Source: a virus
Lineage: Duplodnaviria; Heunggongvirae; Uroviricota; Caudoviricetes
Virus record (IMG/VR): IMGVR_UViG_648276671_000008
Strand: one strand, 5' to 3'
DNA: 9,553 nucleotides
Shown here in pieces: positions 2 through 7,835 of the stretch. The notes beneath the pieces were generated by a model. It saw only the letters and a list, made by a program, of their open reading frames with translations. It had not been told where the DNA came from and did not search any database. The position numbers and the translations under genes are program-made. Numbering within the stretch: position 1 is the stretch's first letter; each line of letters begins with the position of its first letter.

Positions 2-214
2 AGGGTGATTATTCCGGATGCGGCAATCAGCACCGGTAATACGGTGCAGATAGTGGCGAACAATGCGGGAACCATCACGATAGAGCCAGCGAGCAACAAT
101 GTGCTCATCACCCCAAAAGGTGAAAGCGAAGGACTGCCGTCATCCACGGTCACAGAAAGCAGCGTAACGCTGGTACAGACCGGGGCGGACGGAAAGAGCT
201 GGGTGATCACATAA
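2..214 (+). CDS. 3' end of an unidentified protein (partial; reading frame is open to the 5' window edge, stop TAA 212-214)
   Basis: Six-frame track ORF 5..214 has no in-frame stop back to position 2, so it is most likely the C-terminal ~70 aa of a longer upstream gene. The peptide is Ser/Thr/Val-rich (…GLPSSTVTESSVTLVQTGADGKSWVIT) and I do not recognise it. It sits just upstream of cos, where lambdoid phages carry lysis-distal accessory genes. Confidence 0.3.
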   Translation, partial: RVIIPDAAISTGNTVQIVANNAGTITIEPASNNVLITPKGESEGLPSSTVTESSVTLVQTGADGKSWVIT

Positions 215-3091: not shown

Positions 3092-3281
3092 ACTGCAGGC
3101 GCTGCGTCAGGCGCGCCTTGATTTATTAACCGGTAAACGGGTGGTGTCTGTCCAGAAAGATGGTCGCAGAATTGAATATACGGCGGCTTCTCTGGATGAG
3201 CTTAACCGGGCGATCAATGATGCGGAGTCGGTACTGGGGACAACCCGGCGTCGCCGTCGTCCGCTGGGAGTGAGGTTATGA
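3075..3281 (+). CDS. W: Head-tail joining / head completion protein gpW-like
   Basis: 68 aa; …LLTGKRVVSVQKDGRRIEYTAASLDEL…TRRRRRP matches lambda gpW (68 aa, …[21 protein letters not shown]…). GGAGGA lies 5 nt upstream of ATG 3075. Overlaps the A 3' end and the B start (ATGA). Confidence 0.8.
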   Translation: MVTVAELQALRQARLDLLTGKRVVSVQKDGRRIEYTAASLDELNRAINDAESVLGTTRRRRRPLGVRL

Positions 3282-4870
3282 AACGAACGCCTGTCCTGAT
3301 TGATGTGAACGGCGTTCCGCTTCGGGAGAGCCTCAGCTACAACGGGGGCTGCGCAGGATTTGGTGGGCAAATGGCGGAGTGGTTGCCACCGGCGCAGAGT
3401 GCCGATGCAGCTCTGTTGCCCGCGTTGCGTCTGGGGAATGCCCGTGCAGATGATCTGGTACGCAATAACGGGATAGCGGCCAATGCGGTGGCACTGCATA
3501 AGGATCATATTGTCGGGCATATGTTTCTTATCAGCTACCGTCCGAACTGGCGCTGGCTGGGGATGCGGGAGACCGCGGCAAAAAGTTTTGTCGATGAGGT
3601 GGAGGCGGCCTGGTCGGAATACGCAGAAGGGATGTTTGGCGAGATCGACGTGGAAGGGAAACGCACGTTTACGGAATTTATCCGTGAAGGTGTGGGCGTT
3701 CATGCGTTTAACGGCGAAATCTTTGTGCAGCCGGTCTGGGATGCGGAGACCACGCAGTTATTCCGTACGCGTTTTAAAGCCGTGAGTCCGAAACGGGTGG
3801 ACACGCCAGGACACGGTATGGGGAACCGCTTTCTGCGGGCCGGTGTGGAGGTCGATCGATATGGCCGTGCCGTTGCGTACCATATCTGTGAGGATGATTT
3901 TCCGTTCTCTGGTAGTGGACGATGGGAACGGATCCCGCGTGAACTTCCCACCGGGCGTCAGGCCATGCTGCATATTTTCGAGCCGGTGGAGGACGGGCAG
4001 ACCCGTGGGGCTAATCAGTTTTACAGCGTCATGGAACGGCTGAAGATGCTGGATTCCCTGCAGGCAACACAGCTTCAGTCAGCCATAGTGAAGGCAATGT
4101 ATGCAGCGACAATTGAAAGTGAACTTGATACCGAAAAGGCCTTTGAATATATCGCCGGCGCGCCGCAGGGGCAGAAGGATAATCCGCTTATTAATATTCT
4201 GGAGAAGTTCTCCAGCTGGTATGACACGAATAACGTGACGCTGGGCGGTGTCAAAATTCCGCACCTTTTCCCCGGGGATGATCTGAAACTGCAGACTGCG
4301 CAGGATTCAGACAATGGATTTTCGGCACTTGAACAGGCGCTGCTGCGGTATATCGCCGCCGGTCTTGGCGTTTCCTACGAACAGTTGTCCCGTGATTACT
4401 CGAAGGTCAGTTATTCAAGTGCCCGCGCATCCGCCAATGAGTCGTGGCGCTATTTTATGGGGCGGCGAAAATTTATTGCGGCCCGGCTGGCCACGCAGAT
4501 GTTTTCCTGCTGGCTGGAAGAGGCACTTCTTCGGGGGATTATTCGTCCGCCACGGGCGCGTTTTGATTTTTATCAGGCGCGATCAGCCTGGTCACGGGCA
4601 GAGTGGATTGGTGCCGGAAGAATGGCCATTGACGGGCTCAAGGAGGTTCAGGAATCAGTGATGCGCATTGAGGCCGGACTGAGCACGTATGAGAAAGAGC
4701 TGGCGCTGATGGGCGAGGATTATCAGGACATTTTCCGCCAGCAGGTCAGGGAATCTGCAGAGCGGCAAAAAGCCGGACTCTCACGTCCGGTGTGGATAGC
4801 GCAGGCGTATCAGCAGCAGATAGCGGAGAGTCGCAGGCCGGAAGAGGAGACAACACCACGTGAGACGTAA
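3278..4870 (+). CDS. B: Portal protein (gpB-like)
   Basis: 530 aa. Long collinear matches to lambda gpB: GFGGQ, GNARADDLVRNNG, KRTFTEFIREGVGVHAFNGEIFVQ, FEPVEDGQTRGANQFYSVMERLKMLD, LQSAIVKAMYAATIESELDT, LLRYIAAGLGVSYEQLSRDY, SARASANESW, GRMAIDGLKEVQESVMRIEAGLSTYEKE. Confidence 0.93.
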   Translation: MKRTPVLIDVNGVPLRESLSYNGGCAGFGGQMAEWLPPAQSADAALLPALRLGNARADDLVRNNGIAANAVALHKDHIVGHMFLISYRPNWRWLGMRETAAKSFVDEVEAAWSEYAEGMFGEIDVEGKRTFTEFIREGVGVHAFNGEIFVQPVWDAETTQLFRTRFKAVSPKRVDTPGHGMGNRFLRAGVEVDRYGRAVAYHICEDDFPFSGSGRWERIPRELPTGRQAMLHIFEPVEDGQTRGANQFYSVMERLKMLDSLQATQLQSAIVKAMYAATIESELDTEKAFEYIAGAPQGQKDNPLINILEKFSSWYDTNNVTLGGVKIPHLFPGDDLKLQTAQDSDNGFSALEQALLRYIAAGLGVSYEQLSRDYSKVSYSSARASANESWRYFMGRRKFIAARLATQMFSCWLEEALLRGIIRPPRARFDFYQARSAWSRAEWIGAGRMAIDGLKEVQESVMRIEAGLSTYEKELALMGEDYQDIFRQQVRESAERQKAGLSRPVWIAQAYQQQIAESRRPEEETTPRET

Positions 4871-6365
4871 TCTTTCACACATTATTGCCGCAGCATTCAA
4901 TGAACCGCTGCTTCTGGAGCCCGCCTATGCGCGGGTTTTCTTTTGCGCGCTCGGGCGCGAGATGGGGGCAGCAAGTCTTTCGGTACCACAGCAGCAGGTA
5001 CAGCTTGATGCTCCCGGAATGCTGGCTGAAACGGACGAGTACATGGCCGGAGGTAAACGACCGGCCCGTGTTTACCGGGTGGTGAACGGTATTGCCGTAC
5101 TGCCGGTGACCGGCACGCTGGTGCACCGGCTGGGTGGTATGCGGCCATTTTCCGGAATGACAGGCTATGACGGTATTGTCGCCTGTCTTCAGCAGGCAAT
5201 GGCGGATAGCCAGGTGCGGGGCGTACTGCTGGACATTGACAGTCCGGGCGGGCAGGCCGCCGGCGCGTTTGACTGCGCTGACATGATTTACCGCCTCCGT
5301 CAGCAGAAGCCGGTCTGGGCACTGTGCAATGACACGGCCTGTTCTGCAGCCATGCTGCTGGCGTCGGCCTGCTCCCGACGGCTGGTTACCCAGACATCCC
5401 GTATCGGCTCCATTGGCGTGATGATGAGCCATGTCAGCTATGCCGGTCATCTGGCGCAGGCCGGTGTGGATATCACGCTGATTTACTCAGGGGCGCACAA
5501 GGTGGATGGCAATCAGTTTGAAGCGTTGCCGGAAGAGGTTCGCCAGGACATGCAGCAGCGGATTGATGCGGCGCGCCGGATGTTTGCCGAAAAAGTGGCG
5601 ATGTATACCGGTCTGTCTGTTGATGCCGTCACGGGAACAGAGGCCGCCGTTTTTGAAGGTCAGTCCGGCATTGAGGCCGGGCTGGCGGATGAATTAATCA
5701 ATGCGTCGGATGCCATCAGTGTGATGGCCACGGCGCTGAACAGTAATGTCAGAGGAGGCACTATGCCGCAATTAACTGCAACGGAAGCCGCCGCGCAGGA
5801 GAACCAGCGAGTGATGGGGATCCTGACGAGTCAGGAAGCGAAAGGACGTGAACAGCTTGCCACGATGCTGGCAGGACAACAGGGCATGAGCGTTGAACAG
5901 GCCCGGGCGATTCTGGCCGCGGCGGCACCGCAGCAGCCGGTGGCATCCACGCAGAGTGAAGCCGATCGCATTATGGCGTGTGAAGAAGCGAAAGGTCGTG
6001 AACAACTGGCGGCAACGCTGGCGGCGATGCCGGAGATGACGGTGGAAAAAGCCCGCCCGATCCTGGCTGCTTCACCGCAGGCGGATGCCGGACCCTCACT
6101 CCGTGATCAGATCATGGCACTGGATGAGGCAAAAGGGGCTGAGGCGCAGGCTGAACAGCTGGCTGCCTGCCCGGGAATGACTGTGGAGAGCGCCCGGGCT
6201 GTGCTGGCTGCGGGATCAGATAAGGCAGAACCGGTCTCTGCATCCACAACCGCCATGTTTGAACATTTCATGGCGAACCATTCACCGGCAGTGGTACAGG
6301 GTGGCGTGCCACAGACGTCAGCAGACGGTGATGCGGACGTAAAAATGCTCATGGCCATGCCATGA
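4860..6365 (+). CDS. C: Prohead protease / minor capsid protein gpC-like (S49 SppA-type serine protease domain fused to scaffold-like C-terminal region)
   Basis: 501 aa. The N-terminal region (AFNEPLLLEPAYARVFFCAL) and the protease core (GYDGIVACLQQA…GAFDCADMI…PVWALCNDTACSAAMLLASACSRRLVTQTSRIGSIGVMM…ITLIYSGAHKVDGN) track lambda gpC. Start inferred as GTG 4860, overlapping the B stop; the exact start is uncertain. Confidence 0.88.
   Translation: MRRNLSHIIAAAFNEPLLLEPAYARVFFCALGREMGAASLSVPQQQVQLDAPGMLAETDEYMAGGKRPARVYRVVNGIAVLPVTGTLVHRLGGMRPFSGMTGYDGIVACLQQAMADSQVRGVLLDIDSPGGQAAGAFDCADMIYRLRQQKPVWALCNDTACSAAMLLASACSRRLVTQTSRIGSIGVMMSHVSYAGHLAQAGVDITLIYSGAHKVDGNQFEALPEEVRQDMQQRIDAARRMFAEKVAMYTGLSVDAVTGTEAAVFEGQSGIEAGLADELINASDAISVMATALNSNVRGGTMPQLTATEAAAQENQRVMGILTSQEAKGREQLATMLAGQQGMSVEQARAILAAAAPQQPVASTQSEADRIMACEEAKGREQLAATLAAMPEMTVEKARPILAASPQADAGPSLRDQIMALDEAKGAEAQAEQLAACPGMTVESARAVLAAGSDKAEPVSASTTAMFEHFMANHSPAVVQGGVPQTSADGDADVKMLMAMP
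5763..6365 (+). CDS. nu3: Scaffolding protein Nu3-like, in-frame internal start within C
   Basis: ATG 5763 is in the C frame and preceded by AGAGGAGG 5 nt upstream (5751-5758). Lambda Nu3 is translated from an internal in-frame start in the 3' part of C. The product contains the three tandem repeats described in findings. Confidence 0.5.
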   Translation: MPQLTATEAAAQENQRVMGILTSQEAKGREQLATMLAGQQGMSVEQARAILAAAAPQQPVASTQSEADRIMACEEAKGREQLAATLAAMPEMTVEKARPILAASPQADAGPSLRDQIMALDEAKGAEAQAEQLAACPGMTVESARAVLAAGSDKAEPVSASTTAMFEHFMANHSPAVVQGGVPQTSADGDADVKMLMAMP

Positions 6366-6401: not shown

Positions 6402-6749
6402 ATGGTGACGAAAACCATCACTGAACAGCGTGCGGAAGTACGTATTTTTGCCGGTAATGATCCGGCTCATACCGCCACAGGCAGCAGCGGGATTTCCTCG
6501 CCAACACCGGCACTGACGCCCCTGATGCTGGATGAAGCCACCGGGAAACTGGTGGTCTGGGACGGACAGAAAGCCGGTAGTGCGGTTGGCATACTGGTAC
6601 TGCCGCTTGAAGGCACAGAGACGGCGCTGACGTATTACAAGTCGGGAACCTTTGCGACGGAGGCAATCCGCTGGCCTGAAAGTGTGGATGAACACAAAAA
6701 GGCCAACGCCTTTGCCGGCAGTGCCCTGAGTCACGCGGCGCTGCCGTAA
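6402..6749 (+). CDS. D: Head decoration / capsid stabilisation protein gpD-like
   Basis: 115 aa; NDPAHTAT…TPLMLD…KLVVWDG…AVGIL…YYKSGTF…WPE…AFAG matches lambda gpD (110 aa). AGGAGG lies upstream of ATG 6402. Confidence 0.85.
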   Translation: MVTKTITEQRAEVRIFAGNDPAHTATGSSGISSPTPALTPLMLDEATGKLVVWDGQKAGSAVGILVLPLEGTETALTYYKSGTFATEAIRWPESVDEHKKANAFAGSALSHAALP

Positions 6750-6806: not shown

Positions 6807-7835
6807 ATGGGATTGTTTACGACCCGCCAGTTACTCGGTTATACCGAACAAAAAGTGAAATTTCGTGCGCTGTTTCTGGAGCTGTTTTTCCGCCGTACAG
6901 TGAATTTCCATACCGAAGAGGTGATGCTGGACAAAATTACCGGAAAAACGCCGGTGGCGGCCTATGTCTCCCCGGTTGTTGAAGGAAAAGTGCTGCGTCA
7001 TCGTGGTGGTGAAACCCGCGTGTTGCGTCCGGGCTACGTCAAGCCGAAACACGAATTTAATTACCAGCAGGCGGTTGAGCGCCTTCCTGGTGAAGATCCA
7101 TCTCAACTGAATGATCCGGCTTACCGCCGTCTGCGTATCATTACCGATAACCTCAAACAGGAAGAGCACGCGATTGTCCAGGTGGAAGAAATGCAGGCGG
7201 TAAATGCTGTGTTGTATGGCAAATACACCATGGAAGGAGACCAGTTCGAGAAAATTGAGGTCGATTTTGGCAGGTCGACGAAGAATAACATCACTCAGGG
7301 TAGTGGTAAGGAGTGGTCAAAACAGGATCGTGACACGTTCGATCCTACACATGATCTTGACCTCTACTGCGACCAGGCCAGCGGTCTTGTGAATATTGCC
7401 ATTATGGACGGTACCGTCTGGCGTCTTCTGAATGGTTTTAAGCTGTTCCGCGAAAAACTGGATACCCGTCGCGGTTCAAATTCTCAACTCGAAACGGCAG
7501 TGAAAGATCTGGGCGCAGTGGTGTCCTTCAAGGGGTATTACGGCGATCTGGCCATTGTTGTGGCGAAAACGTCTTATATAGCAGAAGACGGTATCGAAAA
7601 ACGTTATCTTCCAGATAGCATGCTGGTTCTGGGGAATACTGCTGCAGATGGGATCCGTTGTTACGGTGCCATTCAGGATGCTCAGGCGTTGTCCGAAGGT
7701 GTGGTGGCCTCTTCCCGTTATCCGAAACACTGGCTGACGGTGGGGGATCCCGCCCGTGAATTTACCATGACGCAGTCCGCGCCGCTGATGGTGTTGCCGG
7801 ACCCGGATGAGTTTGTGGTGGTACAGGTGAAATAA
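6807..7835 (+). CDS. E: Major capsid protein gpE-like
   Basis: 342 aa (lambda gpE is 341 aa). Matches throughout: TTRQLL…EQKVKF, PGYVKPKHE, DPAYRRLRII, VEEMQAV, GKYTM, KLDTRRGSNSQLETAVKDLG, LPDSMLVLGNT, ARYPKHW, GDPAREFTMTQSAPLMVLPDPDEFV. AAAGGAA RBS before ATG 6807. Confidence 0.95.
   Translation: MGLFTTRQLLGYTEQKVKFRALFLELFFRRTVNFHTEEVMLDKITGKTPVAAYVSPVVEGKVLRHRGGETRVLRPGYVKPKHEFNYQQAVERLPGEDPSQLNDPAYRRLRIITDNLKQEEHAIVQVEEMQAVNAVLYGKYTMEGDQFEKIEVDFGRSTKNNITQGSGKEWSKQDRDTFDPTHDLDLYCDQASGLVNIAIMDGTVWRLLNGFKLFREKLDTRRGSNSQLETAVKDLGAVVSFKGYYGDLAIVVAKTSYIAEDGIEKRYLPDSMLVLGNTAADGIRCYGAIQDAQALSEGVVASSRYPKHWLTVGDPAREFTMTQSAPLMVLPDPDEFVVVQVK

Follow-up and report, generated by a model that had tools for sequence, protein, structure and literature searches.

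The 9,553-nucleotide (nt) stretch of viral DNA analysed here (IMG/VR record IMGVR_UViG_648276671_000008, Caudoviricetes; hereafter the window, 9.5 kb) forms the left end of the head region of a lambdoid phage. Its C-like open reading frame (ORF), which is flanked by a lambda-type portal gene on one side and by the decoration and major capsid (E) genes on the other and overlaps the portal gene by 11 nt, encodes an S49-type prohead protease that continues into a C-terminal scaffold region (Table 1). Three diverged units of 45–46 residues stand in tandem in this region, each a copy of an EAKGRE...LA..LA...GMT...A..L module, and a tail follows at the C-terminus. The gene is indeed of the C/Nu3 protease-scaffold type, as an earlier reading made from the letters alone (the sequence-only reading) had proposed: at the DNA level it shares 98.9% identity with gene 5 of coliphage 21 and with several phage-21-like isolates, and its product matches phrog_53 (head maturation protease) with E = 8e-228. 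The match to the NCBIfam SppA_dom model lies below threshold, as expected in a phage homologue.

The scaffold region is also encoded by a nested in-frame gene, whose predicted 200-residue product comprises 12 residues, unit 1, a 5-residue linker, unit 2, a 2-residue linker, unit 3, and the tail. Its Shine-Dalgarno sequence is specified by Gly-Gly codons of the long frame. Both this sequence and the ATG (window 5751–5765) are conserved at the corresponding site of six relatives, among them lambda, Gifsy-1, N15, phi80, and a four-copy E. coli allele described below, and in these relatives too a conserved Gly-Gly of the long frame supplies the Shine-Dalgarno sequence. The lambda equivalent of the nested start is C residue M309, caggagggcgaATG (NC_001416.1 2800–7200, around locus 2530–2546). 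The RefSeq start of lambda nu3 at 5132 is a different one, upstream of this conserved signal, and corresponds to C residue 239, within the protease domain. Because the annotated lambda start is not homologous to that of phage 21, we rejected length conservation as a reading of the near-equal sizes of the two scaffold proteins (200 residues in phage 21, 201 in lambda).

The internal repeat is significant at the protein level, although it is weak in the DNA. The three peptides quoted in the sequence-only reading are all present in the translation of ORF 4860..6365, at residues 314–359 (nt 5799–5936), 369–409 (nt 5964–6086), and 415–456 (nt 6102–6227). Smith-Waterman scores between units range from 85 to 102 against a shuffled mean of about 26 (standard deviation about 5; z = 12–15), and the observed inter-unit score was reached by 0 of 2000 shuffles. 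The three-unit alignment contains 17 invariant columns, and a profile of the unit scores each of the three modules at 85–89 bits. The PHROG scaffold profiles phrog_8399, phrog_8940, and phrog_17040, all single-copy, each align to three distinct stretches of the protein. Of the features of the single lambda copy, unit 1 retains the long helix 1 and the ENxRxMGIL signature.

At the nucleotide level, the word GAAGCGAAAGG occurs at 5835 and 5985, giving the 150-nt period reported earlier; the word GAGGCAAAAGG begins at 6126 rather than 6127, which makes the second period 141 nt instead of the approximately 142 nt first given. Tandem Repeats Finder reported no DNA repeat in a search for one, and a DNA-level repeat search returned one 97-nt pair with 70% identity at a spacing of 150 and a 12-nt three-copy family at spacings of 150/153. 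Identity between units is 68–82% at codon positions 1 and 2 but only 38–47% at position 3. The similarity between the units is therefore held at the level of the protein, not the DNA.

The GenBank entry M81255.1 (“Bacteriophage 21 head gene operon”) carries three repeat_region features in gene 6, named “Tri1 box”, “Tri box”, and “Tri3 box”, each with the remark “function unknown; putative”. Transferred to the window, the Tri boxes coincide with the cores of the three units (Table 1). Judged by this correspondence of sequence, the triplication is the Tri-box triplication already annotated in phage 21 gene 6 and is thus a known feature. We take the entry and its Tri boxes to originate with Smith and Feiss (Gene, 1993); the GenBank annotation itself is the verified source. 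A newer phage 21 genome record, OL657228.1, labels the same two ORFs capsid protease/scaffolding protein and scaffolding protein.

In genes 5 and 6 the window differs from phage 21 by only a few substitutions, and those that fall in the scaffold part of gp5 are all inside or beside the units (5826–5831, 5976–5990, and 6219–6224). They comprise ILTSQEAKG in the window versus ILTCQEAKG in phage 21, Ala versus Val and Lys versus Asn in IM(A/V)CEEA(K/N)G (EEAKG versus EEANG), and Asp versus Gly in GS(D/G)KA.

Table 1 Features of the window (residue numbers refer to the C-like ORF).
Feature	Position	Strand	Details
Small and large terminase genes, W-like gene	in window, before portal gene		ORF list
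Portal gene	3278–4870		identity to lambda B within the 58–61% range found for B/D/E
C-like ORF: gene 5/lambda C homologue, S49 prohead protease and C-terminal scaffold region	4860–6365	+	501 residues, GTG start
Peptidase_S49 domain, residues 146–293	5295–5738	+	Pfam PF01343, E = 1.4e-35, 123 bits (cutoff 24.9)
Shine-Dalgarno AGAGGAGG of nested scaffold gene	5751–5758	+	read from sequence; M81255.1 has a ribosome-binding site at the equivalent place
Nested in-frame gene 6 (Nu3 analogue), predicted 200-residue scaffold protein	5763–6365	+	ATG at 5763; annotated in M81255.1 and OL657228.1
Unit 1, residues 314–359	5799–5936	+	contains annotated Tri1 box (5830–5933)
Unit 2, residues 365–409	5952–6086	+	contains annotated “Tri box” (5970–6080)
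Unit 3, residues 412–456	6093–6227	+	contains annotated Tri3 box (6111–6224)
C-terminal tail, residues 457–501	6228–6362	+	variable; two conserved islands, AMFEHFMANHSP and terminal LMAMP
Decoration protein, D/shp-like	6402–6749		identity to lambda D within 58–61%
Major capsid protein, E-like	6807–7835		identity to lambda E within 58–61%
FI-, FII-, Z-, U-like genes	after major capsid protein gene		ORF list

AlphaFold2 modelling of a single unit, based on an alignment of 69 units from diverse proteins, yielded three helices with a predicted local distance difference test score (pLDDT) of 92.9 and a predicted template modelling score (pTM) of 0.75. A long helix 1 leads into a short turn containing EAK, helix 2 starts from REQLA, and helix 3 follows GMS/T. 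The unit had earlier been suggested to be a helix-turn-helix; the model instead predicts a three-helix bundle. When the whole 200-residue chain was modelled, confidence was moderate within the units and low in the linkers and the tail (pTM 0.25), with no fixed arrangement between units. Each unit is thus predicted to form an independent three-helix bundle, with flexible linkers between the bundles.

A Foldseek search of the 200-residue model against the PDB gave no match of note (best E = 2.6), because the model lacks a fixed arrangement between units. A sequence search of the PDB found no relative of the module and nothing relevant, and no scaffold protein was among the fold matches searched. 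Similarity to a solved scaffold coat-binding domain of the P22 gp8 type was not detected by sequence or by fold, and in scans of Pfam-A and NCBIfam the module has no model in either. A weak match of unit 3 to the Pfam helix-hairpin-helix motif (PF00633; E = 0.02–0.09) falls under the gathering threshold and was rejected.

To place the triplication in its family, we drew copy-number statistics from a profile search of a representative library and from complete genomes, as a direct homologue search with the scaffold region gave mostly truncated fragments. A 21-unit profile screened over 1.84 billion representative proteins, with E ≤ 0.001 as the limit, retrieved 1,130 proteins, which puts the module in at least 1,130 clusters at 50% identity. 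Copies were counted in the 150 best-scoring proteins, in which multi-copy forms are over-represented: one copy is present in 138, two in 9 (mostly fragments), and three in 3. Among the full-length proteins in this set, 53 of 55 are single-copy, and 54 of 55 contain Peptidase_S49. The module is present in a single copy in about 99% of the 1,130 related protein clusters. Five distant members share the gene order gpA terminase, W, Phage_portal_2, S49, HDPD, and Phage_cap_E, followed downstream by siphovirus or myovirus tail genes. The copy counts, the linkage to S49, and the shared gene order identify the module as a fixed component of the lambda-type head cassette, with one copy as the rule. In one locus (L011) baseplate W/J genes of a contractile tail come after the lambda-type head cassette, so that the head module combines in mosaic fashion with different types of tail.

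Copy number varies among the lambdoid phages themselves. A single module is present in lambda C, N15 gp5, phi80 C, 2B8 C, and Aeromonas phiARM81ld C, and three are present in phage 21 gp5 and Salmonella Gifsy-1 gpC; the triplication is therefore not the ordinary family-wide trait that the sequence-only reading had named as the alternative. The linker between the protease domain and the first module measures about 40 residues in multi-copy proteins, versus a median of 80 (range 53–136) in single-copy ones. This suggests a trade of linker for modules, as seen in few independent events. Both conserved islands of the tail are also present behind the single module of lambda, and the tail length of 45–46 residues falls within the typical family range of 38–62.

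The age of the triplication can be read from Gifsy-1. Units 1, 2, and 3 of the window are 72, 79, and 63% identical to units 1, 2, and 3 of Gifsy-1, respectively, as against 44–53% between units within one protein, and the single lambda copy clusters with the unit-1 sequences. Because the units are orthologous by position, this comparison of sequences places the triplication before the split between the E. coli phage 21 and the Salmonella phage Gifsy-1, in agreement with the earlier view that the expansion is old. Synonymous sites between the window and Gifsy-1 are saturated. Nonsynonymous divergence (pN) is 0.17, 0.19, and 0.26 for units 1, 2, and 3, compared with 0.21 for the protease domain, 0.33 for the linkers, and 0.50 for the tail, a pattern that indicates protein-level purifying selection on all three copies.

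Despite this constraint, copy number is labile. Among the database alleles, one cluster has cleanly lost unit 2 (P0020), one carries an in-register hybrid of units 1 and 2 (P0022), three have partial deletions of unit 2 (P0010, P0012, and P0016), and one is a four-copy form (P0031). The three-copy allele is found in 1,870 of 5,426 complete E. coli genomes (34%) and the four-copy allele in about 105 of them (about 2%). A full-length example of the latter (WP_096934546.1, NZ_CP076279.1) is 538 residues long and is accompanied by a capsid protein 82% identical to that of the window. Units 2–4 of the four-copy allele share 82–89% mutual identity, which indicates a recent separate amplification or homogenisation. 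Separate duplications also occur in the unrelated members P0138, P0107, P0102, and P0174, and module expansion is thus recurrent and independent. A further E. coli allele of 482 residues (NZ_CP163448.1, locus L010, 11161–12609) has lost 19 residues of unit 2, which breaks the module; it matches cluster P0012, which has 53 members. In that prophage all head and tail ORFs look intact, and several early and lysis genes are pseudogenes.

On balance, we consider it probable that the triplicated three-helix module, a hallmark of the lambda-type protease/scaffold, is a protein-contact unit and that its triplication produces a trivalent chain. We infer a contact role because the module sequence is common to the full-length protease and the nested scaffold. 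A single ancestral module of approximately 40 residues was triplicated in frame in the phage 21/Gifsy-1 lineage, with unit 1 keeping the ancestral N-terminal flank and the tail behind unit 3 keeping the ancestral C-terminal flank. Protein selection has maintained the three copies since, joined by short flexible Pro/Ala/Gln linkers as beads on a string. The modules would hold both the full-length protease and the nested scaffold inside the assembling shell, most likely by touching the major capsid protein on its inner face and possibly with help from the C-terminal tail, until the protease destroys them at maturation. Such a chain would be trivalent versus lambda’s monovalent one, a gain paid for by a shorter disordered linker.

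That copy number tunes valency, as the sequence-only reading had proposed, is plausible given the natural two-, three-, and four-copy alleles; more copies would mean higher valency whether the module contacts the capsid protein or another scaffold chain. Published yeast two-hybrid analysis of lambda reports Nu3–E, Nu3–Nu3, and Nu3–C interactions, with contacts not mapped to the module (PMC3224144).

Several points weigh against a capsid-contact role. The binding function is deduced, and the most conserved residues, namely the EAKGRE turn, LA..LA, GMT, and A..L, could all be explained as determinants of the fold. The extreme C-terminus is occupied by the tail, not by a module, and by analogy other scaffold/protease systems place their capsid-binding elements at the extreme C-terminus. 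Only two independent lineages underlie the association of linker length with copy number. The broken unit 2 in a prophage with intact-looking head and tail genes may mean that not every copy is needed, or that the prophage is defective. The title of one paper calls lambda gpNu3 “intrinsically disordered”, which sits uneasily with a folded module, albeit one that makes up a minority of the lambda chain.

The main rival, which we regard as possible but not the probable explanation, assigns the modules to self-association of the scaffold core and capsid binding to the tail, so that three copies would produce a cross-linked network. The Nu3–Nu3 and Nu3–C interactions of lambda agree with this assignment, as does the form of the tail, in which a pair of short conserved islands surrounded by variable sequence resembles a typical linear binding motif. 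The herpesvirus UL26/UL26.5 proteins would provide an analogy. The Nu3–Nu3 contact, however, is not localized to the module, and the tail evolves fastest of all parts of the protein (pN 0.50) although the capsid proteins of phage 21 and Gifsy-1 are 84% identical.

Spacer, portal-binding, and DNA-level roles are less likely. As a structured spacer, the modules would replace part of the disordered linker and set the reach from the protease or scaffold body to the tail. The short linkers of multi-copy proteins (about 40 versus 53–136 residues) fit such a spacer, and alleles with two, three, four, or a broken unit all stand beside closely related capsid proteins. A spacer is nonetheless unlikely: neither the invariance of 17 positions among paralogous copies nor the rank of best-conserved element in 1,130 clusters would be expected of one, and the length from the protease domain to the C-terminus is not conserved (140–304 residues).

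We consider it very unlikely that the modules bind and recruit the portal protein, as the sequence-only reading had allowed. In the five distant members the module always accompanies a Phage_portal_2 gene, but it co-occurs equally with Phage_cap_E and HDPD genes, and the scaffold copies in a lambda prohead far outnumber the portal subunits. Genetically, incorporation of portal protein B in lambda depends on Nu3, yet a Nu3–B contact was not found by yeast two-hybrid analysis (PMC3224144).

Action of the repeats at the nucleic-acid level, either as DNA sites for a protein such as CII or through a helix-hairpin-helix DNA-binding peptide, is suggested by two minus-strand TTGYN6TTGY matches annotated as CII binding sites in OL657228.1 and by the weak PF00633 match to unit 3, but is contradicted by the codon-position pattern and effectively refuted. 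The two putative CII sites (5768–5781 and 6002–6015, minus strand) compare with a chance expectation of 1.79 such matches in the window and were rejected.

A broader proposal, which we hold to be doubtful, extends the capsid-contact role to the whole family: the EAKGRE module would be an unnamed, widespread, autonomous domain that may target S49 proteases and scaffolds to the capsid shell, and its copy number would act as an evolutionary dial trading disordered linker for valency. If so, these proteins would constitute a ready-made system for studying how scaffold multivalency drives capsid assembly. For the triplication itself little is changed by our finding, as it has been on record in the phage 21 entry for decades and one in three complete E. 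coli genomes carries its allele. No part of the lambda-family scaffold is more conserved than the module, which is predicted to fold alone and is unnamed in family databases. The natural one- to four-copy alleles, which occur beside nearly identical capsid proteins, provide a handle for tests of scaffold valency.

Two flanking observations concern the wider genomic setting. Positions 1–237 of the window, including the end of ORF 5..214, have no near match in the phage collection, and positions 238–700 agree only to about 87% with the sequence that lies upstream of Nu1 in phage-21-like phages. At its left edge the window may therefore depart from phage 21 itself. The four-copy prophage (locus L013, E. 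coli SA53-3, NZ_CP076279.1; 1–900 and 8098–9714) adjoins genes for a subtilase AB5 toxin.

Among known systems, phage 21 is the closest: its genes 5 and 6, for the gp5 head-tail preconnector and the gp6 scaffold, share the gene order, the nested start, and the three repeat regions of the window. The Gifsy-1 gpC homologue (STM2605, a Salmonella prophage protein) has three modules in the same order, orthologous by position, beside a capsid protein that is 84% identical; its scaffold region is 58% identical to that of the window, and its linkers and tail have diverged. The E. coli S49 peptidase WP_096934546.1 belongs to the same family but has four units. Lambda has the same head cassette, with B, the C protease, D, and E about 60% identical to their counterparts in the window, and a Shine-Dalgarno sequence and ATG at the homologous place. 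Its C/Nu3 carries one module, 52–56% identical to unit 1 and followed by a similar tail, behind an 80-residue low-complexity linker, whereas the window has three modules behind a 40-residue linker. More distant likenesses would be functional analogies. The P22 scaffolding protein has a small helical coat-binding element near its C-terminus. In herpesvirus UL26/UL26.5 a nested scaffold gene encodes the same C-terminal part as the protease; capsid-protein binding lies at the extreme C-terminus and self-association in a central region. Known tandem three-helix-bundle binding modules include staphylococcal protein A domains, GA albumin-binding modules, and UBA domains.

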